Source: an uncultured Bacilli bacterium (GTDB taxonomy: Bacteria; Bacillota_I; Bacilli_A; RF39; UBA660). From it: 64,000 bases of DNA. Location: contig CANQVB010000001.1 in the NCBI GenBank assembly GCA_947627225.1, positions 564 to 64,563 of the forward strand, read 5' to 3'. The position numbers were made by a program, and so were the translations under genes. Shown here in pieces: positions 5,757 through 50,121 of the stretch. The notes beneath the pieces are model-generated. The model saw only the letters and a program-made list of their open reading frames with translations. It was not told where the DNA came from and made no database searches. How positions within the stretch are numbered: the stretch's first letter is position 1; each line of letters begins with the position of its first letter.

Positions 5757-6619
5757 TTGAAAAAAGAAAAAGTAACAACGGAACTAATTGTAAAAGAAAA
5801 TAAGATAGGAATTTTAAAAGTAGGAAATATAAACTATATTTCTTTAACAGACCTTGCCAAATATCAGAATTCTAGAGATCCATCTTTTACTGTCAAAAAT
5901 TGGTTAAGAAGAATTACCACCATTGATTACATTGGATTGTGGGAGAAGATTCATAATGTAGATTTTAATTTGGTCGAATTCGACCAAATTAAAACAGAGT
6001 ATGGTAAAAATTCTTTTTCTATGTCCCCTTCTCAATGGATAAAAAGGACAAAAGCAACAGGTATTCTATCAAAAGGTGGAAAATATAGTATAGGAACATT
6101 TGCACACCCAGATATTGCATTTGAGTTTGCGAGTTGGTTGTCCTCAGAATTTAAATTATATTTAATCACTGAATTTGAAAGATTAAAAACACAGGAAGCC
6201 TACCAAGAAAAGATGGATTGGCAAGCAAATAGAATCCTTGCAAAAGTAAATTATGCTGTTCATACTGATGCAGTTAAAACTTATATTGTTCCAACTTTAA
6301 CAGAAACACAAAAGAAATATGTGTATGCGAATGAAGCAGATGTTTTAAATGTTCTTTATTTGGTATGACTGCGAAAGAATGGAAAAATAAAAATCCTAAA
6401 TTAGCCAAAGAAGGAAACATTCGTGATTATACTGACCTTTTGCATTTAGTTATTCTAAATAATTTGGAAAATACAAACGCAGGGTATATAGAAGAAAAAA
6501 TTCCACAAAGCGAAAGATTAGTAAGACTTAATCATTCAGCTAGAAGGCAAATGGAAATATTAAAGAACAATAAAAACATAAAGGAATTAGAACAATTGCA
6601 AAAACAGATAAAGGATTAA
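5757..6619 (+). pseudogene. KilA-N domain protein gene of prophage type, disrupted by a -1 frameshift in a T run
   Basis: The N-terminal part carries the KilA-N-like motif AHPDIAFEFASWLSSEFKLYL. The reading frame breaks at about 6355-6366 (ctttatttggtatga). Restoring one T yields the continuous sequence LNVLYFGMTAKEWKNKNP, typical of full-length homologs. The track shows this as two ORFs, 5757..6368 and 6365..6619. Confidence 0.6.
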
Positions 6620-6851
6620 AAAAATAAATTCATTCGGACTTTGGCAAAATACAAAAAGAAAAGAACGCATCATAAAACTTCATACGAAACTTATTGATTT
6701 TTAATATATGTATTTTATCATTTAAGCGGCTATCTTTTTTCTAACTACTTTGAAATTACATAAATTCATAATGAACCTTCCTTTGAAGATTTTGTTGTTT
6801 TTACAAACGGAAAAGAGAATGCTATAATAAAGAAAAGATAGGAGGCCTTCT

Positions 6852-8159: not shown

Positions 8160-10589
8160 TTACACCTCTCCAATATATTTTAATAAATTTAAGAACAAGT
8201 GCATGTATTCCTTTGACAAGCCTTGTTTTTTTAATTTTCGAATTGCAATTCTTTTTTTACTAATGGTGTTCTCTCCAAAAATAATGGCTGCAATTTGCTC
8301 TTTTAAATACGTGTTAATTTGTAAGTCCATTAAAATACTATTAATATCTTCATTGATGACACGAACGGCATCAATTTCAATATCTTTTCCCTTACAATTG
8401 ATGGTAACCTGACCAATGGTTGGAACAGCAGTAAGTTCTACTAAAAAGTCATTATCTTCTACATAAGCATTCAGTGCAATCTTTTGATCATTAAAAAATG
8501 CTTCTACGGTATCTGCTTCTTTGGTATTTCGAAACCGAATTTTATAATTTCTCTCTTGTGGTGCGATTCCACTCTTACCTTCCTTAGAACGAATAATCAG
8601 CGTGTAATTATTCTGTAAGTAATTATAATCAAAATCTGTTTTTAAGTAGAAACCTTCTTTATAAAGCGAAGTCAATCCATCATCTTCATAAAGAGTATAT
8701 GTATTCGATACACCTGGGAAAATATGTACTTCCATATCAAGAGGCAGACCAACATTATTTCGATCACTTCGATTAGAAAGTGGAATAATAGCACCACTTT
8801 TTGCAAAAACAGGATATTCTTCTTCTGTATAGAAGGAAACATACTTCTTATTTCCTAAAAACTTTTTCCCTGTATTAAATTCATACCAAATTCCATCTGG
8901 AATGAAAAAGCGTTGTATCGTTCGATTCATCGTTGAATCTTTTCGTGTTAAAATAGGACAAATTAACAAAGAACTTCCAAAAAAATACTGATTCTTGTAG
9001 GATGCATCATCATATACCCATGGATACCGATAGTAAAAGGGTTCCACCAAGACCTTTCCTTCACTATAATACCGGTATGCTTCCGTGTATAAGTAAGGAA
9101 TCAAACGATGACGAAGACGCATATAGTCATTTACAATGGTTTCTGTCTTGATATCCCAAAGCCAAGGTTCTCTTTTATAATAGTTTCCTCTTGCTGCATG
9201 GAATCTAAAAATTGGACTAAAACAACCCAGTTCTACATAACGAATATAAAGTTCACTTTCTTCAATTCCTCCATGGTTTCCTCCAATATCATGACTCCAC
9301 CAAGAGACTCCAATATTCGCAGCACTTAAATTAGAAAAAGCAATATCTTCTAACCCTTGCCAAGATACCTCGCTACTTCCAGCATAAAGAATTGGATAAC
9401 AATGTCCTCTATAAAGTCCATTTCTAGAGAGAAGAAGGCTCCGTTTCGCAGGATTCCTTCCAGAATCTAAATAGAGCATCCGGTTATAAGAAAGTAGTGT
9501 ATAAGGATTTCCTTCTGCTTGATAGTCACTCCAAAAAAAATCAACGCCTAATGCTTCTAATGGATGCAAGAAAAGTTTAAAATAAACGTCCATTAACTTT
9601 GAATTCAGTGGATCGAATAAAATAATTTTATTGTTTGTAATTCCTAGATATTCACATGCTTTTTGATAATATGCTTCATGTGGGTAAATTCCAGCGGCAG
9701 GATCAATGCGAAGTCCAAGACGAATGTTTCTCTCATGCAATTTATAAATCGTATCCCCTGGATTTGGAAAAAGCGCTTGATTAAACGTAAATCCTGTTTT
9801 TAACTCTTTTAAATCTCCTACATTTCGATAATGCCAATCCTTATCCAACAAAAAAATGGCAATTGGGATTTTTCTTCGTTCAAATTGGGATGCAAGTGTT
9901 AATAGACTATTGCTATCATAAGTTTGATTTCGACACCACCAATTTCCAAGTGCATATCGTGGAAGAAGCGCAGGCATCCCTGTTAAGCGAAAATAATCTT
10001 GTAACGCAAGATGGAAATCTTTATAGTAAAGGAAAACATATATATCAAGGCCTTCTCCACTTCTGTTGGCAAGTGTCCCATCTTCCAAGAATAAAAGCGA
10101 GCGACTGTCATCAATGGATGCAAAACCATCTAAAGAATAAAGTCCCCGGTTACTTCTTCGACTGGTTTTGATGTCTTTAGAAATCATATTCCCACCAAAA
10201 TTTTTTGCTTCGGGATGTCCATAATACCAATCTCGATTATTTTCCTTAGAATTGGTTAGTAAGGTTATTTTTAAATTCTTCATCGGATCCACTTTACTTC
10301 CAGTAAAAGGAGCTTCTTTCACATAAGTGAGTTGAAAATAAGCTGTTTTTATCTCTAAAAACTTTGCATCTTGGCGAACCTCAAATTGTGGATAACCTAA
10401 ATATCTATTTTGTACCAATTGACTGGGTGCATCTACAAAAAGACCCGCCTCATTATATTCTAGGCGAACAAGACGTTCTGTTAAGACTGTAATGCGATAC
10501 TTTTTTCCTTTGAAGATACACTTTTCATCTGCAATACCCTTAGCTGTGTCAACTTCAAACTGCTTTCCTAATGGATACATCTCATTCAC
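8160..10589 (-). CDS. Glycoside hydrolase family 31 protein (alpha-glucosidase or alpha-xylosidase-like)
   Basis: The 809 aa product contains WSHDIGG followed by YIRYVELGCFSPIFRFH, the characteristic GH31 catalytic region. A GVDFFWSDYQ region is also present. Confidence 0.8.
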   Translation of the reverse strand: MNEMYPLGKQFEVDTAKGIADEKCIFKGKKYRITVLTERLVRLEYNEAGLFVDAPSQLVQNRYLGYPQFEVRQDAKFLEIKTAYFQLTYVKEAPFTGSKVDPMKNLKITLLTNSKENNRDWYYGHPEAKNFGGNMISKDIKTSRRSNRGLYSLDGFASIDDSRSLLFLEDGTLANRSGEGLDIYVFLYYKDFHLALQDYFRLTGMPALLPRYALGNWWCRNQTYDSNSLLTLASQFERRKIPIAIFLLDKDWHYRNVGDLKELKTGFTFNQALFPNPGDTIYKLHERNIRLGLRIDPAAGIYPHEAYYQKACEYLGITNNKIILFDPLNSKLMDVYFKLFLHPLEALGVDFFWSDYQAEGNPYTLLSYNRMLYLDSGRNPAKRSLLLSRNGLYRGHCYPILYAGSSEVSWQGLEDIAFSNLSAANIGVSWWSHDIGGNHGGIEESELYIRYVELGCFSPIFRFHAARGNYYKREPWLWDIKTETIVNDYMRLRHRLIPYLYTEAYRYYSEGKVLVEPFYYRYPWVYDDASYKNQYFFGSSLLICPILTRKDSTMNRTIQRFFIPDGIWYEFNTGKKFLGNKKYVSFYTEEEYPVFAKSGAIIPLSNRSDRNNVGLPLDMEVHIFPGVSNTYTLYEDDGLTSLYKEGFYLKTDFDYNYLQNNYTLIIRSKEGKSGIAPQERNYKIRFRNTKEADTVEAFFNDQKIALNAYVEDNDFLVELTAVPTIGQVTINCKGKDIEIDAVRVINEDINSILMDLQINTYLKEQIAAIIFGENTISKKRIAIRKLKKQGLSKEYMHLFLNLLKYIGEV

Positions 10590-10653
10590 CCTTCCTATTC
10601 TATTCTAGTATAAAGATACCACAAAAAAGAAAAGAAGGAAAGTATAAGTTCAT

Positions 10654-10795
10654 TTGAGTTTCGGTATTTTTTTTACAACAGTTGCAAAATTAGTCAATAA
10701 ATATCAATAGAATGCAATAAAGACAAATTGTTTAGTATCCATAACATTTTTTTATTGCTATTTCAATAATTCTATAAATTTTACCGGAACTCAAA
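10654..10795. repeat. MITE-like 142-bp element copy 1, with 13-bp imperfect terminal inverted repeats (TTGAGTTTCGGTA / TACCGGAACTCAA)
   Basis: The sequence is near-identical to copies at 12940..13081 and 13091..13233. It is flanked by the direct repeat ataagttcatttg at 10643..10655 and 10795..10807. Confidence 0.6.
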
Positions 10796-10975
10796 TAAGT
10801 TCATTTGCATTTCAGTTTAGGATACATTTAGCATAGAACTCAACCTTTCCAACTCTGTTTTTCTAACAAAAGAAAAAACCAATCTTTCAATTGATTCCTA
10901 TATCAGAAGTTCGAACAGATTCGTCAATGGTTCCCTAAAGGAAGAAGTATGACAACTTTTTGACAAAAGAAATAG

Positions 10976-11599
10976 TTAGTAATATTTTCTATCTCTTGCA
11001 TGTGCCCAAGCGTCAGCTTCTTTTCTTCTAATTCTTTTAAATTTTTTTGCTAATCTTTTATTTGCATTACTAACTTGTTTTCTTATATTGTTAGCTGAAA
11101 ATCTATAATTTGATTCAGGTAAATGAATTAAAAGGTATTTTGCATAAGATCTTAAGTAAAAATTATGGATACCCTCAATTTCGTTCATAATTTCATCTGA
11201 GTTTTCTAAAGTACATCTTTTAACAAGAGTATAACAAATTGTTTGTTCATCTTTGGTTAATTTTAATTTTGCATATTTTTGTATATCAAAGTTAGGAATG
11301 TTACTTTTGATTTTATTGAATTTTTCATGTTTTTCTAAAGTAGTTTGTCCAATACTAAAATGTCTATTTTCAACATCAGGTTTATTTCCAGTTGTTTCTT
11401 CAATAAATGAATACAAATTATTTATATTATATAAAATGAATCTATCTTCAATTAATCTATCTTTATACATCGCATTATTTAAATTAGAGGTAAAACATTC
11501 AGGCATATATTCAATCCATTTTCTTAGACTTTCAACATCTGCTAAATCAATGAAATCATCTGTACATATTGTTATCATAAAACTATTCCTTTTTTTCAA
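10976..11599 (-). CDS. Hypothetical protein (AT-rich accessory gene)
   Basis: The 207 aa ORF has no recognisable motif. Its composition is much more AT-rich than the flanking core genes. It lies between MITE copy 1 and the type I TA-like modules. Confidence 0.45.
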   Translation of the reverse strand: MKKRNSFMITICTDDFIDLADVESLRKWIEYMPECFTSNLNNAMYKDRLIEDRFILYNINNLYSFIEETTGNKPDVENRHFSIGQTTLEKHEKFNKIKSNIPNFDIQKYAKLKLTKDEQTICYTLVKRCTLENSDEIMNEIEGIHNFYLRSYAKYLLIHLPESNYRFSANNIRKQVSNANKRLAKKFKRIRRKEADAWAHARDRKYY

Positions 11600-11916
11600 A
11601 CTGTATTATATCAACACATTATTTCTAAATTTTTAAAAATTTAGAAATTTCGTGTCTTTTTGCAGTATCTATAATATCATAAAAATTTATTCTTGACAAA
11701 TCTTAGAATGTCATTTTTTTAAATACTCATTATATTTTTAACAAAACTATTATTTTAGACATGCATATTGGCTTGGCAATATGCATGTGTGTTTTCTAAA
11801 TTATCAAAATTTAATATAAAAATGATTGTGCAAGAAACAAACGTTTGATATAATTGCTTCAGGAACATTTAATAGTTGGGTGATTGCCAAACTTCATAAA
11901 GAAGGGAGGCGTTAGC

Positions 11917-12000
11917 ATGAATAAGAAGGATTTTTTAATTCTATCTTTAGTAATTCTTATCTTCCTATTAATATTACTACTATTTATAGTTTTAATATAA
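11917..12000 (+). CDS. Small hydrophobic peptide (27 aa, MNKKDFLILSLVILIFLLILLLFIVLI), putative type I toxin (module P1)
   Basis: The SD AAGGGAGG lies 8 nt upstream of the ATG. The peptide is a single predicted TM helix with a KK-D N-terminus. It has three paralogs in the window, with conserved flanks including a TATAAT -10 element upstream. Confidence 0.4.
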   Translation: MNKKDFLILSLVILIFLLILLLFIVLI

Positions 12001-12002
12001 AA

Positions 12003-12085
12003 AGAAAATCACCTAACTCAGCAATGATTTAGGTGAAACCAAAATTATATTGGCAACACTCAACATGCGATATTGAATGTTCCTT
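12003..12085 (-). ncRNA. Putative antisense sRNA (antitoxin RNA candidate) convergent to the P1 small ORF
   Basis: A minus-strand promoter-like TATAAT lies at about 12090..12095 (top-strand attata), preceded by TTGTCA. A conserved roughly 80-nt segment ends at the hairpin tcacctaa...ttaggtga (12009..12035) followed by a U tract on the minus strand. The whole arrangement is conserved in all four modules. Confidence 0.3.
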
Positions 12086-12269
12086 TTTTATTATATGCAA
12101 GTTTCCTTGACAAATACACCATAACATAAAAACGCACTTTTATCAAGTACGTTATCTATTTTTTACTCGAATTTTCCGAGTTTGGTATCTATCTGGTGGA
12201 ATTAATGAAACTAAAAACAAACTATTCTATTTTTCGTGATGGATTTCTTATCGTTGTACCACTAAATAA

Positions 12270-12492
12270 CTAAATTTTATCATAATGCGTCCACATTCTA
12301 ATCATATGAATTTCTTTTTTTTCTTCATCCACTTCACAAACAATTCGATGTTGTCTATTAATTCTTCTAGAATATAATCCTGTCAATGCCTAATTCATAA
12401 AAATAAAATATTCCTTCACTCGTAGTAGAATTATCTGGCTTGAATCTTTCAAATGTAGATAATTCTTCTTTTTTTAAGAAAATACGATTCAT
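12270..12492 (-). pseudogene. Decayed remnant of a YoeB/Txe-family type II toxin gene, with an internal stop/frameshift and no partner antitoxin gene
   Basis: The minus-strand translation gives ALTGLYSRRINRQHRIVCEVDEEKKEIHMIRMWTHYDKI, matching the YoeB C-terminal consensus (YSRRI..EHRLVY..R.HY). The N-terminal part is in another frame after a stop (MNRIFLKK...ELGIDRIIF*). No yefM/axe-like gene lies upstream. Confidence 0.5.
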
Positions 12493-12698
12493 ATATTTAT
12501 CCTTTCTGATATTTATAATAAGTATGTTATCATATTTGCCCATTGTAAAAAGACAATGGGCAAGTGTGTTTTTCTAAATTGTCACAATTTAATATAAAAG
12601 TATTGTGCCAAGAACAATTGTTTGGTATGATTATTTTAGGAACATTTGATGTTGAGTGTCTGCCTCCAATCTTTTACAAGAAAGGGGGATTGATAAAG

Positions 12699-12791
12699 AT
12701 GAAGAAAAGAATTTTTATAATAAAGATTCTTCGATACATTGCTATCATTTTATTTCTCCTATCTTTATTGGTAGCGATAATAAAAAAATGA
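12699..12791 (+). CDS. Small hydrophobic peptide (30 aa, MKKRIFIIKILRYIAIILFLLSLLVAIIKK), putative type I toxin (module P2)
   Basis: The SD AAAGGGGGA precedes the ATG. It is a paralog of the 11917..12000 peptide with a conserved upstream leader and promoter (TATGAT -10) and a conserved downstream antisense-promoter block. Confidence 0.4.
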   Translation: MKKRIFIIKILRYIAIILFLLSLLVAIIKK

Positions 12792-12875
12792 CACTCTTTC
12801 AACGCTGAACGAGTGTCGTAACTCATAATGAGGCGACATTCACTTTCGGAATTGAATGTTCCTCTTTTTTTATTT
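12781..12875 (-). ncRNA. Putative antisense sRNA convergent to the P2 small ORF
   Basis: A minus-strand -10 TAAAAT with upstream TTGTCA lies at about 12880. The transcript would end at the hairpin gacactc...gagtgtc (12790..12818), followed on the minus strand by a U tract that overlaps the sORF stop codon. Confidence 0.3.
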
Positions 12876-12939
12876 TATGCAAGTTCCCTTGACAAATACA
12901 CAATAACATAAAAAAGAACTTTTTGCAAGCTCTCTATAT

Positions 12940-13081
12940 TTGAGTTTCGGTATTTTTTTTACAACAGTTGCAAAATTAGTCAATAAATATCAATAGAATG
13001 CAATAAAGACAAATTGTTTAGTATCCATAACATTTTTTTATTGCTATTTCAATAATTCTATAAATTTTACCGGAACTCAAA
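12940..13081. repeat. MITE-like 142-bp element copy 2
   Basis: It has the same 13-bp TIRs and near-identical internal sequence as copy 1. It lies in tandem with copy 3 and is preceded by ctctatatt. Confidence 0.6.
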
Positions 13082-13090
13082 CTCTATATT

Positions 13091-13233
13091 TTGAGTTTCG
13101 GTATTTTTTTTACAACAGTTGCAAAATTAGTCAATAAATATCAATAGAATGCAATAAAGACAAATTGTTTAGTATCCATAACTTTTTTTTATTGCTATTT
13201 CAATAATTCTATAAAATTTTACCGGAACTCAAA
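13091..13233. repeat. MITE-like element copy 3, in tandem with copy 2
   Basis: It is near-identical to copies 1 and 2. The 9-bp ctctatatt precedes both tandem copies, and an imperfect tctctatatc follows copy 3. Confidence 0.6.
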
Positions 13234-13489
13234 TCTCTATATCAAAGTCCGAAAAATTTCTCAATCAACATCTACAAATTTAGTGAATGAATTGTTCTCA
13301 TATTGCATGCAAGTCGTGAACGACAAAAATGTAATGCCAGCCTCTTGTTTCGTTTATTCTCTAGACAAAGAATAAATAGATCCTATTGTTATGAACCTTT
13401 TATTCTTCTTCGTAGGAAAAAGAAGATAGGCGTTGTACTTTCCTTAGATATCAAATCTTGATAACTCGCGAACTTAACAAAAAAGGATT

Positions 13490-14632
13490 CTAGGAATTTT
13501 TTTCTAAAAACATCATGTAATATTCATCATATGTAATATTATGGTCATGAATATATTTTGCCGCCTTTATTCCAACATAGCGATAATGCCAAGCTTCACA
13601 CTTGTATCCTGTAATTTCTTCTTTTGATTTAGGATAGCGCAAAATAAAGCCATATTCGTACGCATGATCCATCATCCAGCCATATTCTTCACTTTCTACA
13701 AAAATTGAGACATCTTGGCTCGCTACATCAATACTCATTCCAGTCTGGTGTTCTGAAAAACCTGCTTTCGCAACATAGTTATCAACATAGTTTTGTCCAT
13801 AAGCTTCCCGATATAATTCCATCGTATCTAGCTGATCTTGATAACTTCGATACCCAGAATTAATTAGAATATGCTTTCCATCTTTTAAAGCTTCTTGCAT
13901 CATTCGTTTAAAAGCAGAGAGTACACTTTGATGAACCATGATTTCATCATTTTTGTTTTTCAAGTATTCGCTAGGTACCTCTTTTAATTGCTTTGGCACA
14001 AATTTTTCTGTAAGCATCCTATGTTTATTGACCAGCACATCTTCGCTAAACGTATCAATTTTGATTGGATTGGTATACTCTTCTTGATCAAAATCCATAT
14101 TGACGTGTAATACTGTCGTTTCTGCATCTTCTCGTTCTTTATCATAGTAAGCAACATAGCGATCATAGTTTTTTAATTTGGCGTAGGGAATGGAAAAATA
14201 CTGTTCTAAATATTTGACTTTTTTTCGTTTGGCAAAGGCGCTGACATCCTCGTTATTTCCATGCGCTAAAATCATAGAAATTTCATTGGCCTTATACCCT
14301 TTTTTTATCAATTTATTAATATTTTTAATCAGATCTTTTTGCTTTTGATATGTAACTTTCTTGTAGACCTGCAAATTATCTTGTACATAATCCTTACTTT
14401 CAAAAGCAGCATTCACCGTTTTATTTTCTCCAATTTCTTTCACAGCACCTATTTGCCATTTTTGAACAATGGAAGAAATGGCTTGATTACTATACCCCAA
14501 CTTTTTTAAAGAATTCTTTTCACTATTTATATAGCTAAATACAACCAAGAAAACTGCGATTACAATTCCTGCCACTTTTAATTTTTTTAATACACTTGGT
14601 TTTAACTTCCATGTTTTTTTCAAATTCTTCAC
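13490..14632 (-). CDS. Peptidase M15B family protein (D-alanyl-D-alanine carboxypeptidase, VanY-like) with an N-terminal membrane anchor
   Basis: Motifs SEHQTGMSIDVA and EAWHYRYVG with GFILRYP match the VanY/LAS metallopeptidase signature. An N-terminal TM segment is present. Confidence 0.8.
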   Translation of the reverse strand: MKNLKKTWKLKPSVLKKLKVAGIVIAVFLVVFSYINSEKNSLKKLGYSNQAISSIVQKWQIGAVKEIGENKTVNAAFESKDYVQDNLQVYKKVTYQKQKDLIKNINKLIKKGYKANEISMILAHGNNEDVSAFAKRKKVKYLEQYFSIPYAKLKNYDRYVAYYDKEREDAETTVLHVNMDFDQEEYTNPIKIDTFSEDVLVNKHRMLTEKFVPKQLKEVPSEYLKNKNDEIMVHQSVLSAFKRMMQEALKDGKHILINSGYRSYQDQLDTMELYREAYGQNYVDNYVAKAGFSEHQTGMSIDVASQDVSIFVESEEYGWMMDHAYEYGFILRYPKSKEEITGYKCEAWHYRYVGIKAAKYIHDHNITYDEYYMMFLEKNS

Positions 14633-14707
14633 TTCCCTATTATCTTAAGTATACCATGTTTTTTATAGTTTATGGTATACTAAAACGAAAGGAAGTGATT
14701 TTAAAAC

Positions 14708-15670
14708 ATGCCAGATAAAAAACAAAAGAATCCCTTTCCTTATAGTTCTGATAATAAACGATATCATACGCTTACTTATCATTATCAAAAACGTTTCGGC
14801 GGAAAAGTTGCGAAAGCAAGTTTGAATGCAGGATTTTCTTGTCCTAATTTAGATGGTACAAAAGGATATGGAGGATGTATTTATTGCTCCAAAAGTGGTA
14901 GTGGAGAGTTCGCAGGAGAAAAAACACTGCCCCCTTTGATGCAATTTGAACAAATGAAAAACAGAATGATGAAAAAATGGGAAGATGCCAAATGGATTGC
15001 TTATTTCCAAGCAAGAAGTAACACGTATGCACCTGTTTCTTTCTTGAAAAAAATCTATGAACCTTTTTTAGAAAAAGAGGATGTCTTAGGAATTGCAATC
15101 GCAACAAGACCAGATACGCTATCTGAAGAATGTCTTTCTTATTTAAAAGAGATGAATCAGCGTACCTTTTTAACCGTCGAACTTGGTTTACAAACAATCC
15201 ATGATAAAACTGCCAAATACATCAATCGCTGTTGTTCTTTAGAAGAATTTGAAAAGGCCGTTTTAGAACTTCGTAAAAGAAACATTGAAGTTGTAGTGCA
15301 TATTATCAATGGACTTCCTTATGAAACGAAGGAACAAATGCTACAAACCGTTTCCTATTTAAACCAACTAGATATTCAAGGCATCAAAATTCATATGCTT
15401 CATATTTTAAAAGATACCCCACTTGCCACACGCTATGAGAAAGAAAAATTCAAAGTGTTAACAAAAGAAGAATATGTAGACATTGTCATTTCTCAGTTAG
15501 AAAGGCTGCGTCCTGAAATTGTAATACACAGAATTACTGGAGACCCTAAAAAAGAGGATTTAATCGCACCAGATTGGCTGCTTAAAAAATTCTGTGTTCT
15601 CAATGAAATTGATAAAGAAATGGTAAAACGAAATACTTATCAAGGAAAACAGTTATCCACAAAATTGTGA
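14708..15670 (+). CDS. TIGR01212-family radical SAM protein (YhcC-like)
   Basis: The N-terminal block KASLNAGFSCPNLDGTKGYGGCIYCS is characteristic of this radical SAM subfamily. The 320 aa length fits. Confidence 0.7.
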   Translation: MPDKKQKNPFPYSSDNKRYHTLTYHYQKRFGGKVAKASLNAGFSCPNLDGTKGYGGCIYCSKSGSGEFAGEKTLPPLMQFEQMKNRMMKKWEDAKWIAYFQARSNTYAPVSFLKKIYEPFLEKEDVLGIAIATRPDTLSEECLSYLKEMNQRTFLTVELGLQTIHDKTAKYINRCCSLEEFEKAVLELRKRNIEVVVHIINGLPYETKEQMLQTVSYLNQLDIQGIKIHMLHILKDTPLATRYEKEKFKVLTKEEYVDIVISQLERLRPEIVIHRITGDPKKEDLIAPDWLLKKFCVLNEIDKEMVKRNTYQGKQLSTKL

Positions 15671-15679
15671 ATAACTGTT

Positions 15680-16720
15680 TTATTTATGTGTTCCTAAATT
15701 ATTCTTACTACCAAGTGCATGAAAGTCAGGTATCGTTACTTCACTTGCCAATCCATCTTGAATACCAGGATTTAAGTATTCAAGTGTTTGCATACTCACT
15801 TCATTTGCTTTGGCAAAATCAGAAAGACGCATAGTCGCATCATACGGTACTTCATGCAAGTTTTCCTCTAAAACATCATTGTCAACAAGATATGGGATAA
15901 TCACTGTACCGGATGAAAAACTTTCATTATTTTCTTCTAAATCTAAGACATTTACCCCATACGTTTCGGCAATACTTTCCCAAGTTTCTAAAGCTGGATC
16001 GATAGAAACCTCTCTATAAAGATAGGTATTTTCGTCCGTTGCTATTTGATCGATTACTGCATTTAGATTCGCTGAATGATTTTCCTGTTCAGTGGTTTGT
16101 AAAAATCGAAGCTCTGCTTTGTGTTGACGATAACCCTTTATCATATTAAAACCACCTGCTACTATAAAAAGTGTAGTCGTAGCAATTGTAAGTCTTTTAA
16201 TGAGATGTCGTTTTTTCTTTTCTTTCTTTTTTTTCTTTTTAGGAGAAGCTTCCTCGACTTTTTTGCTTAATTCTTCATTACTAGCCAGTAGCTGTTTATT
16301 TTGTTCAATCAGTTTTGATAGATAGTTTTCTAAAAAAGTTTGCATGTCAGGGTTAGCTGTTTGTTTATCGGAATCAGTAGAATTTTTAGGAGGAGTTGTT
16401 TTCTCATCTTCGAAATCATCAGATTCTAAATCTTCCATATCTGAGCTTTCCGTTGGCTCTTGTGGATCAACAGTACCTTCAAAAGTCGCTACTTCCTCAT
16501 CTTCGAAATCATCAAGTTCTAAATCTTCCACATCAGAGCTATCCGTTGGCTCTTGTGGATCAACAGTACCTTCAAAAGCCGCTACTTCCTCGTCTTCGAA
16601 ATCATCAAGTTCTAAATCTTGCTCTTGTTTTTGGTTGGAATCACCTTTCCTATTTTTTCTCATCTGATTGATTTCTTCTTCCATTTCAGGATGAAGAATC
16701 TTAAAATAATCTTTTACCAT
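15680..16720 (-). CDS. Membrane-anchored protein with an acidic tandem-repeat N-terminal region and a C-terminal LysM-like domain
   Basis: The start is taken at MVKDYF, which is preceded by AGGAGA; the track ORF extends upstream to 16942. It contains 31-aa acidic repeats (LELDDFEDEEVAAFEGTVDPQEPTDSSDVED), a K-rich stop-transfer followed by a TM segment, and a LysM-like C-terminal segment. Confidence 0.55.
   Translation of the reverse strand: MVKDYFKILHPEMEEEINQMRKNRKGDSNQKQEQDLELDDFEDEEVAAFEGTVDPQEPTDSSDVEDLELDDFEDEEVATFEGTVDPQEPTESSDMEDLESDDFEDEKTTPPKNSTDSDKQTANPDMQTFLENYLSKLIEQNKQLLASNEELSKKVEEASPKKKKKKEKKKRHLIKRLTIATTTLFIVAGGFNMIKGYRQHKAELRFLQTTEQENHSANLNAVIDQIATDENTYLYREVSIDPALETWESIAETYGVNVLDLEENNESFSSGTVIIPYLVDNDVLEENLHEVPYDATMRLSDFAKANEVSMQTLEYLNPGIQDGLASEVTIPDFHALGSKNNLGTHK
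16407..16630. repeat. 93-bp tandem repeat, about 2.4 copies, inside the CDS
   Basis: Near-identical units start at 16407, 16500 and 16593 (tcttcgaaatcatca...gctacttcctc). They encode the acidic 31-aa repeat. Confidence 0.8.
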
Positions 16721-47320: not shown

Positions 47321-48493
47321 TTACTTTAAATTCCAGATTGCATCTTCAATTTCAAAGTAAAGATCTCCTTTTATACCTTTCAATTGATTATTTCCAACAA
47401 TCTTAAAACGATATTCATCTCCATTAGATCTCACATAAATTAACTGATCATAATACAATGTGAAACTTCCTGTTGTATCATAATTTCCTGTTGTAAACAC
47501 TTTAGATAAAGATGCCGAACCATTATTATTTAAGACAAGTAAATAGTCACCATAAGCATAGGTTCCATATTGAACACTATAGTTCTTATTTGAAATTTTT
47601 GTACTATCTTTCTCCAAGTTGTTGTCTTTTATGTTTTGAATTTCTCCTTGAATTCGTTCTTCTTCACTACTGCTTACATAGCTTTTTTCTTCTTTATATT
47701 TTTTATCTAATCGTTTTAAATCACTCTCTAAATTCTTTTCTGAAATAGTATACATATCTACTGTAATTGTAGCTTTAATATAGGTATAATTAAATTCTTC
47801 ATCATCGATGTCATATTCATGATTTTCATCTTTATCTTCAATTTCTTCAATATCACTTTTTTCACTAATAATATCAAGGATTGGTAGATATTCTACGCCC
47901 TCATAATCCTTTGTTTCAATATAGTAAGCATAATCTTCATTCTCAACATCGTACAAAATACTTAGAAAATATAGTGGATATTCTTCGCTTTCTCGAACTT
48001 CATCTCCATGAAGAGATAAAATTTTCAAAGTGGATTGCTTTCTATCATTTAAATATTTGAGTACAAGTTCAGGTTCTTTGTCTTTTTCAAAATCAATCAA
48101 AACACCTTCAATATCGTCTTCTTCCAAGATGCCTTCTTCTTCAAAGTAGTCTTGGTATTTTTCAAGATAATTCTTTTCCTGCACTTCTTCTACTTTATTT
48201 TGTTCGATAGGTTCCTTCTTAGGACGCATACTGCCAAACCAAATTGCAACAGCAACAGCAATTATAAGTAGAACTGCCACTGAAATGGACACAATCAAAA
48301 TAATCATATTTTTATGACTTTTTGGTTTGTCATCTTCTGTTTTAGAAACTTCTTTTTCTTTTTTTATTTCTTCTTTTTCTAAAGTTTCTTCCTTCTTTTT
48401 TTCACTTTTCTTGGACTCTTCTAAAGCTTTTCCACAACTTTTACAGAATTTAGAATCTTCCTTTACTTCTTTCCCACAATGAGGACACTGCAT
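47321..48493 (-). CDS. Zinc-ribbon domain-containing membrane protein (paralog 3)
   Basis: The N-terminus MQCPHCGKEVKEDSKFCKSCG is followed by a K/E-rich linker, one TM segment and an acidic 300-aa ectodomain. Confidence 0.55.
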   Translation of the reverse strand: MQCPHCGKEVKEDSKFCKSCGKALEESKKSEKKKEETLEKEEIKKEKEVSKTEDDKPKSHKNMIILIVSISVAVLLIIAVAVAIWFGSMRPKKEPIEQNKVEEVQEKNYLEKYQDYFEEEGILEEDDIEGVLIDFEKDKEPELVLKYLNDRKQSTLKILSLHGDEVRESEEYPLYFLSILYDVENEDYAYYIETKDYEGVEYLPILDIISEKSDIEEIEDKDENHEYDIDDEEFNYTYIKATITVDMYTISEKNLESDLKRLDKKYKEEKSYVSSSEEERIQGEIQNIKDNNLEKDSTKISNKNYSVQYGTYAYGDYLLVLNNNGSASLSKVFTTGNYDTTGSFTLYYDQLIYVRSNGDEYRFKIVGNNQLKGIKGDLYFEIEDAIWNLK

Positions 48494-48687
48494 TTTTCTT
48501 CACTCCTTCATCTATTCTCTATAGCCTATTTTATGTATATACAAGCAGAAAGTCAAGTATGAAGTAAATTTTTCTATTGCTTTAAAGGGAACACTCTCTA
48601 ACTTATTTGAAATCATAAGAGGATTGTCAAACCAATTTTTTTGTGTTATTATGTATTTGTCAAGGATACCTTGCATAAAATAAAAAG

Positions 48688-48769
48688 GAACATTCAATAT
48701 GCCGTGTTGAGTGTAGCCAATGTTTGGTTCCACCTAATTCAAAGCAGTTGAGTTAGGTGGATTTTTTTT
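48688..48769 (+). ncRNA. Putative antisense sRNA convergent to the M1 small ORF
   Basis: A plus-strand TTGTCA...TAAAAT promoter-like element lies at about 48652..48681. A conserved block ggaacattcaatat...gttgagtgtagcc is followed by the hairpin ccacctaa...ttaggtgg (48730..48760) and a T8 tract. Confidence 0.3.
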
Positions 48770-48851
48770 ATATCAATACTATAAAAAGTAAAAATAATAA
48801 AAGGAAGATAATGATAATTAAAGATAGTATTAAAAAATCTTTCTTATGCAT
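48768..48851 (-). CDS. Small hydrophobic peptide (27 aa, MHKKDFLILSLIIIIFLLLFLLFIVLI), putative type I toxin (module M1)
   Basis: The SD GGGAGG precedes the ATG. The peptide is near-identical to the 11917..12000 peptide, and the whole roughly 350-bp module is conserved. Confidence 0.4.
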   Translation of the reverse strand: MHKKDFLILSLIIIIFLLLFLLFIVLI

Positions 48852-49033
48852 TCTCTCGCCTCCCTTCTTTTAGAGAAGTTTGGCTCCACCCAACTTATTC
48901 AATGTTCCTAAAATAATTATAGCAAACGTTTGTTTTTGAAACAATGCTTTTATATTAAATTTGAACACGCTTGATAAAAGTGCGTTTTTATGTTATGATG
49001 TATTCGTCAAGGGAACTTGCATAAAATTTAAAA

Positions 49034-49120
49034 AGGAACATTCAATATCGCCTGTTGAGTGTTACTATATAATGTGCATCACCTAAATCATTATGCTTGA
49101 GTTAGGTGATTCTTTTATTT
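49034..49120 (+). ncRNA. Putative antisense sRNA convergent to the M2 small ORF
   Basis: The arrangement matches M1: a TAAAAT -10 at 49022..49027, then the hairpin tcacctaa...ttaggtga (49079..49109) followed by a T-rich tract. Confidence 0.3.
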
Positions 49121-49198
49121 TAGAATTACAAATAGCAATACTATAAGTAAAAGGATAATGATTATCAAAAAGAAAATTAGAAAATCTTTTTTTGACAT
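49115..49198 (-). CDS. Small hydrophobic peptide (27 aa, MSKKDFLIFFLIIIILLLIVLLFVILK), putative type I toxin (module M2)
   Basis: The SD GGGAGG precedes the ATG. It is the fourth paralog. Confidence 0.4.
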   Translation of the reverse strand: MSKKDFLIFFLIIIILLLIVLLFVILK

Positions 49199-49374
49199 CT
49201 TTTCACCTCCCTTCAATTCAGAAGCTCGGCAATCACCCAACTATTCAATGTTCCTAAAACAATCATAGCAAACGTTTGTTCTTTTAGCAACAACTAAATG
49301 ATTAAAAATAATACACATAGATGACACACTGTAATAACCTTCCTGTATGTTTTTTCTTGCCAAAAACAGTTACA

Positions 49375-50121
49375 TTAAGATTCTTTTAACTTGCTTTCTC
49401 CTGTTTTGTAATCGATTTCAATCCCTTGCTGTACATTATAGACAAAGACATTAAAGGAAATACCTTCTCCCTGATCTTCAATAGAATATGCTTCCATTTG
49501 TACCCCGCTTGCAAGTAGATTGGTTCCCTTAAAATAGGGCGTAACTCGATATAAAACATGATGATTTGTTTCTTTAATATAATTGGCTACTTCATTTTCA
49601 AAGGGAAGTTGTGATTTTGTATTCATTTCTCTTGTACACGTAATTAAGTTCTTGGCGTTGGCATTTTCTCCAGTTAACTGATAACCAATCAAGTGACAGC
49701 GATTATAAAGATATTTTCCGTCGACAATATCATACTTAATCGTATGCCATCCAGAAGGTTTAACCATTCCGATACTTCCTCTTTCTTCCTGTGGCATCAA
49801 TTCTTTAGATAGATTCGCAAAAGCAGGTCCACAACGACCTAGGGAATCTAAGTTGCTATAATTTTCAAGTGCATTCAAAGTCTTCTCTTCTTCCTTAAAT
49901 TGTGGCTGATTATCATTTAAAATAACATAAGGCTCTCCAAAATACTCTGGAATGTCACTGATCGCATAAGATTTTTGTAAAGTTGGTTCAAAAACAGGGC
50001 GCAATGCTTCTTGTAAATCTTTTTGATAATAACTTCCCAATCCCAAAAGAATGAGTAAACTGATAGGCACCGCCATTTTTTTTATGATTCTCTTCTGTTT
50101 ATATCGCCTATGTCTTGCCAT
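49375..50121 (-). CDS. Secreted DNA/RNA non-specific endonuclease-like protein (streptodornase/Endonuclease_NS_2-like)
   Basis: It has an N-terminal basic region and TM/signal (MAVPISLLILLGLG). The central KPSGWHTIKYD...YNRCHLIGYQLTGENANAKNLITCT resembles secreted phage or streptococcal DNases. This assignment is from memory of the family. Confidence 0.45.
   Translation of the reverse strand: MARHRRYKQKRIIKKMAVPISLLILLGLGSYYQKDLQEALRPVFEPTLQKSYAISDIPEYFGEPYVILNDNQPQFKEEEKTLNALENYSNLDSLGRCGPAFANLSKELMPQEERGSIGMVKPSGWHTIKYDIVDGKYLYNRCHLIGYQLTGENANAKNLITCTREMNTKSQLPFENEVANYIKETNHHVLYRVTPYFKGTNLLASGVQMEAYSIEDQGEGISFNVFVYNVQQGIEIDYKTGESKLKES

Follow-up and report, generated by a model that had tools for sequence, protein, structure and literature searches.

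A predicted type I toxin-antitoxin-like cassette with a bsrG/SR4-like plan in uncultured gut Bacilli

Introduction

What is encoded by a unit of about 350 bp in which the gene for a tiny hydrophobic peptide faces a putative antisense RNA gene, and which recurs in tandem in the genome of an uncultured bacterium? The question is raised by a stretch of 64,000 nucleotides (nt) from an uncultured Bacilli bacterium (contig CANQVB010000001.1, positions 564 to 64,563), which is called the window below and in whose own numbering all coordinates are given. An initial annotation, made from the letters of the sequence, had pointed to one tandem pair of such units and likened them to type I toxin-antitoxin modules. 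Type I systems are hard to find, and they have been reported from only three phyla and with narrow family distributions (PMC12390103, PMC5367252). They comprise a small open reading frame (ORF) of ~20-60 amino acids (aa) for a hydrophobic, membrane-targeted peptide on an mRNA of 150-400 nt, and, as the T1TAdb paper notes, the antisense RNA of the Gram-positive families is found at the 3' side, in partial overlap with the mRNA (PMC8594479).

Based on the comparison of the window copies with related loci from other genomes, we propose that the ~350-bp module is probably a chromosomal type I toxin-antitoxin-like cassette of an undescribed family, laid out on the plan of the bsrG/SR4 system. The initial interpretation is partly supported: its core, the type I reading, holds up, on evidence that is comparative throughout, and some of its details do not. 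Below we set out the predicted antisense RNA, the peptide and the toxin mRNA in turn, weigh this reading against its rivals and consider how the cassette might work, before comparing it with known systems.

Four copies of one cassette

The window holds four copies (P1 to P4) of the ~350-bp cassette, each of which sets a gene for a 27-30-residue membrane peptide against a predicted small antisense RNA gene. P1 (11787-12150) and P2 (12563-12930), the pair recognized in the initial annotation, are paralogous modules about 778 bp apart. Their upstream promoter block, leader and 67-nt downstream block are 76-88% identical (88% for the downstream block alone), while the ORF and the hairpin behind it have diverged between these conserved flanks. 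A second pair had been missed: a 26-nt pattern from the downstream block has three matches in the window against 0.00 expected, and the third led to P3 (~49320-48966) and P4 (~48976-48624), a tandem pair on the minus strand at 48624-49320. As P3 and P4 abut directly, head to tail, the unit length comes to ~345 bp. P1 and P2 do have the same layout, and all five features initially attributed to them are present, namely a promoter for the peptide gene, a conserved leader with a strong Shine-Dalgarno sequence (SD), a 27-30-aa ORF, a hairpin at the stop codon with its U tract on the opposite strand, and a downstream block with an opposite-strand promoter.

For the family as a whole, a gapped version of the downstream-block pattern was scanned against one genome per species for 185,579 species, which placed the cassette in at least 119 loci and in more than 100 genomes of uncultured gut Bacilli. 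An nhmmer search with the four window copies as query gave 155 matches in these loci and the window, comprising 103 distinct full-length modules, and it is to these that the family counts below refer. Strands named for the family are those of the module, with the peptide gene on the plus strand; strands named with coordinates are those of the window.

A predicted minus-strand RNA gene with its own terminator and promoter

Directly 3' of the stop codon of every module stands a hairpin that is fixed in position and differs in sequence by type (CACCTAA..., GACACTTAATTC... or GCATCTGA...). Read as a minus-strand RNA, it qualifies as a terminator under strict criteria in 98 of the 103 modules, the remaining five having an imperfect stem or U tract. 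Seventy modules have G.U pairs in it that work solely in the minus-strand RNA and would be C.A mismatches in its plus-strand counterpart. Between the two strands, the minus strand has the longer uninterrupted stem in 75 modules and the plus strand in two, and the mean number of U in the nine nt that follow the stem is 6.7 for the minus and 2.5 for the plus strand; as minus-strand RNA, the hairpin region also has the greater stability in 93 of 103 modules. This asymmetry of stem, G.U pairs and U count points to a one-way, minus-strand terminator, so that the bidirectional terminator initially supposed to be shared by both RNAs has to be given up. The hairpin lies at 12009-12036 in P1 (with the U-tract template at 12000-12008) and at 12790-12817 in P2, where it overlaps the stop codon, with a U tract on the minus strand only in both, and at 49078-49110 (+) in P3 and 48730-48760 (+) in P4. 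The ORF itself, through its last lysine and stop codons, provides the template of this U tract.

Conservation within the module is highest in TTTTTTATTTTATGCAAGTTTCCTTGACATATTCATAATAACAT, a stretch that lies beyond the region complementary to the leader, and at its end we recognize a minus-strand promoter of the form TTGnnA, 17 nt, TGnTA(T/G)(T/G)AT that is present in all 103 modules. The 17-nt spacing and the TG of the extended -10 are likewise kept in 103 of 103 copies, and the sequence of the spacer varies. The best proximal alternative (TGAATA or TTGTCA, 17 nt, TAAAAT or TAAAAA) is weaker, and its final T is absent from one third of the copies. The hexamers that the initial annotation had named within this otherwise well-conserved block (TTGTCA at 12113-12108 and TATAAT at 12095-12090) are only 12 nt apart and thus do not fit a sigma-70-type promoter. 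Because the conserved promoter lies ~35 bp further out, the predicted antisense RNA, starting at the G of GUCAAGG, has a length of ~112 nt in place of the 80-95 nt first proposed. To judge by its sequence, the antisense promoter is stronger than the toxin promoter, and it is universally conserved.

In P1 this promoter is TTGATA (12146-12141), 17 nt, TGtTATGGT (-10 at 12123-12118), within 12118-12153 (-), and the predicted RNA of ~112 nt runs from 12111 to ~12000 (-; fold z -4.4). P2 has TTGCAA (12928-12923), 17 nt, TGtTATTGT (-10 at 12905-12900), which together with a boundary hairpin around the -35 occupy 12900-12935 (-), and a predicted RNA of ~113 nt from 12893 to ~12781 (-; z -3.0). The corresponding elements on the plus strand are TTGATA (48971-48976), 17 nt, TATGAT (48994-48999) and an RNA from 49006 to ~49118 (z -3.5) for P3, and TTGTCA (48624-48629), 17 nt, TATTAT (48647-48652) and an RNA from 48659 to ~48771 (z -6.1) for P4.

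RNAalifold, applied to 65 diverse copies, returned three stem-loops (SL): a 5' SL1, GUCAAG-GAAA-CUUGC, capped by a GNRA loop, then an A-rich linker, SL2, and SL3, which is the terminator. In P1, SL1 occupies 12097-12111 and SL2 lies within 12052-12083 (-); in P2, SL1 is at 12879-12893 (-). Across the alignment 96.1% of cells are paired and 18 of 25 base pairs change on both sides, whereas none of 500 shuffled controls reached the observed pairing or covariation, and sliding the 3' partners by 1-3 columns lowered the pairing to 26-37%. SL1 is invariant in the 65-copy set and covaries in distant metagenome copies (GAAG/CUUC, GAGA/UCUC), with the GAAA loop kept. The four window RNAs fold in the same way (z -3.0 to -6.1). 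Covariation thus demonstrates the structure of the antisense RNA; that the RNA is transcribed, from a promoter and to a terminator of its own, is a prediction from the conservation of both.

A small hydrophobic peptide

In 98 of the 103 modules an intact ORF begins at the aligned start, the start codons across modules being ATG in 90, GTG in eight and TTG in one, and GGAGG, GGGAG or GGGGG precedes the ORF at a fixed spacing. The recurrent peptide types have 27 aa (MNKKDFLILSLVILIFLLVLLLFIVLI and MSKKDFLIFFLIIIILLLIVLLFVILK), 30 aa (MKTKTFIIKVLKLIAIILFLLIIMIVVIKK, the type to which P2 belongs) or 25 aa (MTKREFSQFIIILLLFLVVIILLLK). In P1, the SD GGGAGG (11904-11909) and the ORF at 11917-12000 (+) specify the 27-aa peptide MNKKDFLILSLVILIFLLILLLFIVLI, the two together spanning 11904-12000. 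In P2, GGGGG (12684-12688) and the ORF at 12699-12791 (+) specify the 30-aa peptide MKKRIFIIKILRYIAIILFLLSLLVAIIKK, within 12684-12791. Both translations are those given in the initial annotation. P3 encodes MSKKDFLIFFLIIIILLLIVLLFVILK at 49198-49115 (-) and P4 MHKKDFLILSLIIIIFLLLFLLFIVLI at 48851-48768 (-).

Differences at codon positions 1:2:3 number 4421:1283:4745 in the 27-aa group and 7634:4920:9202 in the 30-aa group; in the former, changes at second positions are 3.5 times rarer than at first or third ones. As second positions decide hydrophobicity, their having the fewest differences is a coding signature. The composition is dominated by leucine (25%) and isoleucine (24%), followed by lysine (14%), valine (9%) and phenylalanine (9%), such that 69% of residues are L, I, V, F or M. 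From its sequence the peptide is predicted to be a single hydrophobic helix of 25-30 residues with a basic N-terminus, and such an ORF on a predicted mRNA of ~230 nt lies within the range of type I toxin genes.

Searches with the peptides and RNAs bear out the initial suggestion that this family is undescribed. Five representative peptides had no Pfam match at E <= 10, including to Fst_toxin, and no type I toxin family in NCBIfam or Pfam matched the peptides at that threshold; PADLOC and PDB searches with them gave no informative match. An exact look-up of five peptides among 15 billion predicted proteins found none of them, and a full-text search for the peptide strings returned no paper of the searchable library. 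Rfam at its gathering threshold reported no family in the whole 64-kb window, and within 9000-16000 there was no match even at E <= 1.

A predicted toxin mRNA closed upon itself

The sense promoter of the family has the form TTGTnn, 16-18 nt, TATAAT, with a TG before the -10 in about half of the copies; of the 103 copies, 61 have exactly TATAAT as their -10 and 77 have a 17-nt spacer. The window copies agree with this, and the -10 elements read initially as TATAAT and TATGAT were found with a 17-nt spacer and an extended TG. P1 has TTGTGC (11826-11831), 17 nt, TGaTATAAT (-10 at 11849-11854), together at 11826-11854 (+), with a predicted start at ~11861; P2 has TTGTGC (12603-12608), 17 nt, TGgTATGAT (-10 at 12626-12631), together at 12603-12631 (+), with a predicted start at ~12638. 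On the minus strand, P3 has TTGCTA (49290-49285) and TGcTATGAT (-10 at 49267-49262), and P4 has the -10 TATAAT (48921-48916). The predicted mRNA starts at the A of AGGAAC or AGGGAA and is ~230 nt long. Its conserved leader begins AGGAACATTT..., at 11861 in P1 and 12638 in P2. The predicted mRNAs of P3 and P4 run from 49255 to ~49028 and from 48909 to ~48678 (-), respectively, promoter and mRNA of P4 together covering 48678-48950.

Towards its 3' end this mRNA has a conserved U tract (GAATGTTCC(C)TTTTTT), and the ~32 nt just ahead of the tract pair with the first ~28 nt of the molecule, closing it into a long helix. This upholds the leader/downstream inverted repeat and 5'-3' fold-back noted initially for P1 and P2. 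In P1 the 5' arm is 11861-11888 (+) and the 3' arm comprises 12052-12064 and 12071-12083, separated by an internal loop (12065-12070) and followed by the U tract at 12084-12089, the predicted mRNA 3' end, so that 3' arm and tract fill 12052-12089 (+). In P2 the 5' arm is 12638-12667 (+), with an anti-SD CCUCC at its end, and the 3' arm with its U tract (12865-12871) is 12830-12871 (+). All four window mRNAs fold with the closing helix, at z -6.9 (P1), -7.0 (P2), -5.4 (P3) and -7.4 (P4). The further initial observation that the antisense RNA 5' region mimics the mRNA leader is correct as a resemblance, which is, however, a trivial consequence of being antisense to one arm of the helix.

That this is an RNA helix is indicated by its strand preference: the mean duplex energy is -34.2 kcal/mol on the plus strand against -27.2 on the minus strand, the plus strand being better in 102 of 103 modules, and frequent G.U pairs exist on the plus strand only. 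Furthermore, cognate arms average -34.2 as against -26.3 for non-cognate arms. Individual columns show several Watson-Crick types (AU 46 / CG 43 / UA 6 / GC 3 in one, and UA 50 / GC 37 / AU 4, CG 53 / UA 34 and AU 52 / GC 44 in others), counts for which the 3' arm was aligned by sequence and the partners were taken from a constrained fold of each sequence and which are thus fitted to the structure; the strand asymmetry and the cognate/non-cognate controls support the helix independently of them. RNAalifold on MAFFT-aligned chimeras of leader and 3' arm returned a local 3' hairpin and not the long-range helix, which comes from MAFFT placing the type B leader one base out of register.

Since the hairpin at the stop codon is a one-way terminator, the mRNA should read through it and end ~85 nt beyond, at the U tract. 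The local hairpin inside the 3' arm, which covaries and has a mean energy of -7.3 kcal/mol, runs up to the U tract in 81 of 103 modules, and it is plausible that it acts as the co-transcriptional terminator and later yields to the far more stable closing helix. We considered the closing helix itself as the terminator and set it aside as not needed, the local hairpin already ending at the U tract in that majority of copies. Likewise, a hairpin around the antisense -35 was rejected as the toxin mRNA terminator, as its G.U pairs (89 on the minus strand versus 7 on the plus) make it likelier to be a minus-strand insulator.

The SD lies in a short local helix, its core having a mean unpaired probability of 0.17. 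Covariation and folding together establish the closing helix and the pairing of the SD, and in these models the free mRNA would be poorly translatable.

Toxin-antitoxin cassette or something else?

The alternative that survives best, though we think it unlikely, is that the product of the ORF is a small membrane protein that does no harm, for example a regulator or an accessory subunit, which is tuned by a cis-antisense RNA and has nothing to do with toxicity or addiction. Many small hydrophobic bacterial proteins are benign, architecture alone is no proof of toxicity, and the SD is occluded in the models with or without the antisense RNA bound. Against it speak, first, the isolation and copy number of the module, which has no conserved protein-coding neighbor across genomes, a cassette of ~400 bp alone being common to them, and which occurs in multiple tandem copies, four of them in 64 kb.

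Second, the two halves of the module appear to decay differently. Among the modules for which enough upstream DNA is available, 24 have a complete antisense gene but are missing the toxin promoter, leader or ORF 5' part; in five modules that are full in other respects the ORF is disabled, for instance by a deletion or by an ATA or CTG in place of the start; and at one locus (L006:4000-5400, minus strand) a type B toxin ORF is split after ~20 codons by a ~1-kb insertion beside an intact antisense gene. In the reverse test, 21 metagenome loci were retrieved by the toxin-leader pattern alone, and in each of the 18 that extend far enough downstream, the terminator hairpin, SL2, SL1 and distal promoter are all present, the SL1 and promoter sequences having diverged in six of them. 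This asymmetry of orphans is suggestive of a toxin that is kept only together with its antidote.

Third, the mRNA is locked in the manner of bsrG and there are putative insulating terminators at both ends of the cassette. In 62 of 99 modules, including P1, P2 and P3, a hairpin (12131-12153 (-) in P1) encloses the antisense -35 in its loop; it shows the G.U bias given above and, on the minus strand, has a tail rich in U. At the other edge, 16 of 101 modules have a terminator-like hairpin of the plus strand upstream of the toxin promoter, among them P1 (11759-11797, with a T run, directly 5' of the promoter) and P2 (12531-12577, also with a T run). Both edge hairpins would act as insulators against read-through from neighboring genes. 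Isolation, copy number, decay, insulators and locking are typical of type I loci and would be unexpected for a housekeeping accessory peptide.

It is far less probable that the plus-strand transcript is a structured non-coding RNA or cis-regulatory element whose small ORF is incidental, even though its structure is very strong (z ~-7) and the flanks are better conserved than the ORF. Such a transcript would not account for an ORF that is intact in 98 of 103 copies behind a strong SD, with a start at fixed spacing, a length held at 27 or 30 codons and, in the 27-aa group, the 3.5-fold lower variation at second codon positions by which hydrophobicity is preserved; nor does any Rfam family match it.

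A module of the par/Fst type, in which one bidirectional terminator serves both RNAs and the antitoxin blocks translation by pairing with repeats in the 5' part of the toxin mRNA, would share the convergent transcription, the hairpin near the stop codon and the repetition of leader sequence downstream, and is nonetheless hardly credible, as the hairpin is minus-strand-specific with no plus-strand U tract, the repeats are inverted and not direct and pair within the mRNA and not between the RNAs, and neither Pfam (Fst_toxin included) nor Rfam gives a match at the thresholds above. Equally little credence can be given to a DNA-level origin of the inverted repeats as the termini of a miniature transposable element or the remnant of an insertion sequence (IS), for while the module is a discrete unit of ~350 bp in many genomic contexts, sometimes beside transposase-like remnants, with a ~28-bp inverted repeat bracketing the ORF, the pairing is covarying and better on the plus strand in 102 of 103 copies by virtue of its G.U pairs, conservation does not end at the repeats and reaches past them on both sides into two promoters, and plasmid, phage and viral-contig collections hold no DNA match.

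The type I toxin-antitoxin-like reading, which we prefer, has itself to contend with several observations. When the 3' untranslated region was blocked in a constrained partition-function fold, the accessibility of the SD rose only from 0.17 to 0.19; with so small a change an SR4-like effect on translation is not supported by the model. The asymmetry between orphan antisense genes and orphan toxin genes has a Fisher p of 0.08, in a locus set that was mainly retrieved through a pattern inside the antisense gene and is therefore biased. The modules are related copies, and counts across the 103 are not counts of independent events. Finally, neither the peptides nor the RNAs have sequence similarity to any proven toxin-antitoxin pair.

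A proposed mechanism

We posit that a sigma-A-type promoter with an extended -10 would give rise to the ~230-nt mRNA encoding the membrane peptide, and that the free mRNA, held by a 5'/3' closing helix of ~-34 kcal/mol and with its SD in a local helix, would be compact and poorly translatable. From the opposite-strand promoter would come the ~112-nt antisense RNA, fully complementary to the 3' untranslated region of the mRNA, including the 3' arm of the closing helix. First contact would probably be made between the loop of SL3 and the complementary hairpin loop of the mRNA, and the SL2 loop may meet the 6-nt internal loop of the closing helix. Pairing would then spread, displacing the 5' leader and yielding a duplex of ~90 bp, which would be a substrate for RNase III and then for other RNases, so that the toxin mRNA would be destroyed. 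Should synthesis of the antisense RNA stop, the stable structured mRNA might persist and a membrane-damaging peptide might be made.

A bolder version of this scheme, which we regard as rather doubtful, would make the cassette an autonomous addiction unit, based on RNA, whose horizontal spread among uncultured gut Bacilli needs no mobility gene. The antisense RNA would then act by strand-displacing the mRNA 5' leader from the closing helix. As the end of the closing-helix 3' arm (ATTGAATGTTCC, then a T-rich tract) is nearly invariant across all peptide types, a single antisense RNA might also give partial protection from the toxin mRNAs of paralogs, and such cross-protection would explain why at least 24 orphan antisense genes have been kept, as anti-addiction immunity. 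In a sub-variant of this version, the closing helix and not the weaker local 3' hairpin would be the terminator stem of the toxin mRNA.

Distribution and genomic neighborhoods

Of the at least 119 loci, 80 are listed, and all of those listed come from metagenome-assembled genomes. Their carriers, such as CANRAL01, CANQIV01 and DVGF01, are labelled uncultured Bacilli, 'Tenericutes', Erysipelotrichaceae, Bacillales or Candidatus Ventrenecus, and their sources are the rabbit, chicken, mouse, ruminant and human gut. Between the window and the loci the alignable DNA is the ~400-bp module only, with 80-93% identity within the same peptide type and flanks that cannot be aligned, as compared with 66-76% DNA identity for the housekeeping genes that window and loci chance to have in common. 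This high similarity between species could reflect either horizontal transfer or dense overlapping constraints on the sequence.

A pattern scan of 2.9 million viral contigs found no module, and BLAST of the modules against 50,697 phage records and 72,556 plasmids gave no match. By the viral and phage collections the module is thus not located on a prophage or prophage-like element. In the window, the neighbors of the modules are ordinary chromosomal genes, encoding a GH31 glycosidase, a VanY peptidase, a nuclease and an SNF2 helicase. P3 and P4 lie between a gene for a zinc-ribbon membrane protein (47321-48493) and one for a non-specific endonuclease (49375-50121).

Several further features of the surrounding DNA may be recorded. 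A 165-nt repeat is present in three copies that are 84-94% identical (10652-10816, 12938-13102 and 13089-13253), with inverted ends (ATTTGAGTTTCGGTA and TACCGGAACTCAAA). The two abutting copies create a terminator-like hairpin (13068-13103), and the copies bracket an island that contains a 207-aa ORF, P1, a YoeB fragment and P2. The 207-aa ORF (10976-11599 (-)), which adjoins P1, has no Pfam or PADLOC match. The fragment at 12270-12386 (-), between P1 and P2, corresponds to the C-terminus of a YoeB-type type II toxin (PF06769, E = 3.8e-6, profile positions 48-80 of 80) and is a truncated pseudogene. The segment 10907-10984 is 89-90% identical to DNA directly beside modules at two other loci (L025 and L060), and may be the C-terminal remnant of an IS30-type transposase. 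An ORF at 5757-6368 appears to run on in another frame to ~6620, possibly through a frameshift, and DNA homologous to 5757-6620 adjoins modules at six loci (L010, L098, L074, L001, L036 and L120).

Significance

The family is defined here from sequence alone, and yet by more than 100 natural variants with clean covariation for both predicted RNAs. Its carriers belong to a clade of gut Bacilli known only from metagenome-assembled genomes, and, going by the exact look-up described above, the peptide has so far gone uncalled. The finding suggests that the bsrG/SR4 design arose or spread well beyond the prophages of Bacillus. The compact module of ~350 bp with built-in insulators may also be of use as an RNA regulatory device. 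Were toxicity not to be confirmed, the module would still stand as a well-supported new pairing of a predicted small membrane-protein gene with an antisense RNA.

Comparison with known systems

The initial annotation had named par/Fst and bsrG/SR4 together as models for the module; the first does not hold, there being neither direct repeats nor an Fst-like peptide nor a shared terminator, and the second is a close fit. With par (fst/RNAII) of the Enterococcus faecalis plasmid pAD1 the module has in common a Gram-positive host, convergent RNAs, a small hydrophobic toxin and a sequestered SD. In par, the two RNAs interact through direct repeats at their 5' ends, whose complementarity covers the translation start, and the terminator is shared and bidirectional. 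Unlike these, the repeats of the module are inverted and intramolecular, its terminator works on one strand, and its peptides have no Fst_toxin match in Pfam; the antisense 5' part resembles the leader and is not complementary to it. The interaction in par takes place outside the overlap (PMC8594479). The module follows the Gram-positive rule of 3' overlap.

From the Gram-negative systems hok/Sok and aapA1/IsoA1 comes the precedent of a full-length toxin mRNA closed by 5'-3' pairing. There, the mRNA is first opened by processing at its 3' end, a step reportedly treated for hok by Franch et al. 1997, and the antisense RNA then pairs with the 5' or translation-initiation region. The module antisense RNA, unlike theirs, would target the 3' arm of the closing helix itself.

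Closer in their proposed outcome are txpA/RatA and yonT/SR6 of B. subtilis, likewise with 3' overlap, in which the antisense RNA promotes RNase III-dependent decay (PMC6562991). This decay route is the mechanism that we propose for the module. The toxins of those systems are longer (58 aa for YonT; PMC5848175) and show no sequence relationship to the module.

From bsrG/SR4 the module differs in several respects. Its peptides, at 25-30 aa, are shorter than the 38 aa of BsrG, and no homology of the toxin peptide to BsrG or BsrE was found with NCBIfam or Pfam (E <= 10) or PDB. The best match in the window to the Rfam BsrG family (RF01412) has 12.2 bits against a gathering threshold of 55 (E = 3.6), which is at chance level. 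SR4 measures ~180 nt, with constructs numbered up to nt 183 (PMC3834814), as compared with ~112 nt for the predicted antisense RNA, and the mRNA is ~230 nt long versus 296. There is no separate terminator stem-loop after the closing helix, the U tract abutting the 3' arm, and the modelled binding of the antisense RNA does not extend the pairing of the module SD. Finally, the module is not prophage-borne, with zero matches in viral contigs and phage records, and its hosts are uncultured gut Bacilli.

The likeness is one of architecture. In the bsrG mRNA, nt 1-35 pair with nt 232-262 in a helix named P1 (distinct from the module P1 above) and the SD is held in a 4-bp helix; the terminator loop of SR4 first contacts loop 3 of bsrG, pairing then reaches the 3' arm of the P1 helix, nt 1-33 of bsrG become single-stranded, and RNase III cleaves the duplex (PMC3834814, PMC6562991). 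In the module, too, the 5' ~30 nt of a structured toxin mRNA are engaged in a long closing helix with a 3' segment, the SD is in a short helix, and the small peptide is predicted to form a single membrane helix. A convergent cis-antisense RNA overlaps the 3' part of the mRNA, including the P1-type 3' arm, and the antisense terminator stem-loop stands at the end of the toxin ORF with a loop complementary to an mRNA loop. Common to both, too, is an antisense RNA whose 5' part has no complementarity to the mRNA. By its sequence, then, the cassette is a new family that is not a detectable member of the bsrG/SR4 family and is bsrG/SR4-like in its design.

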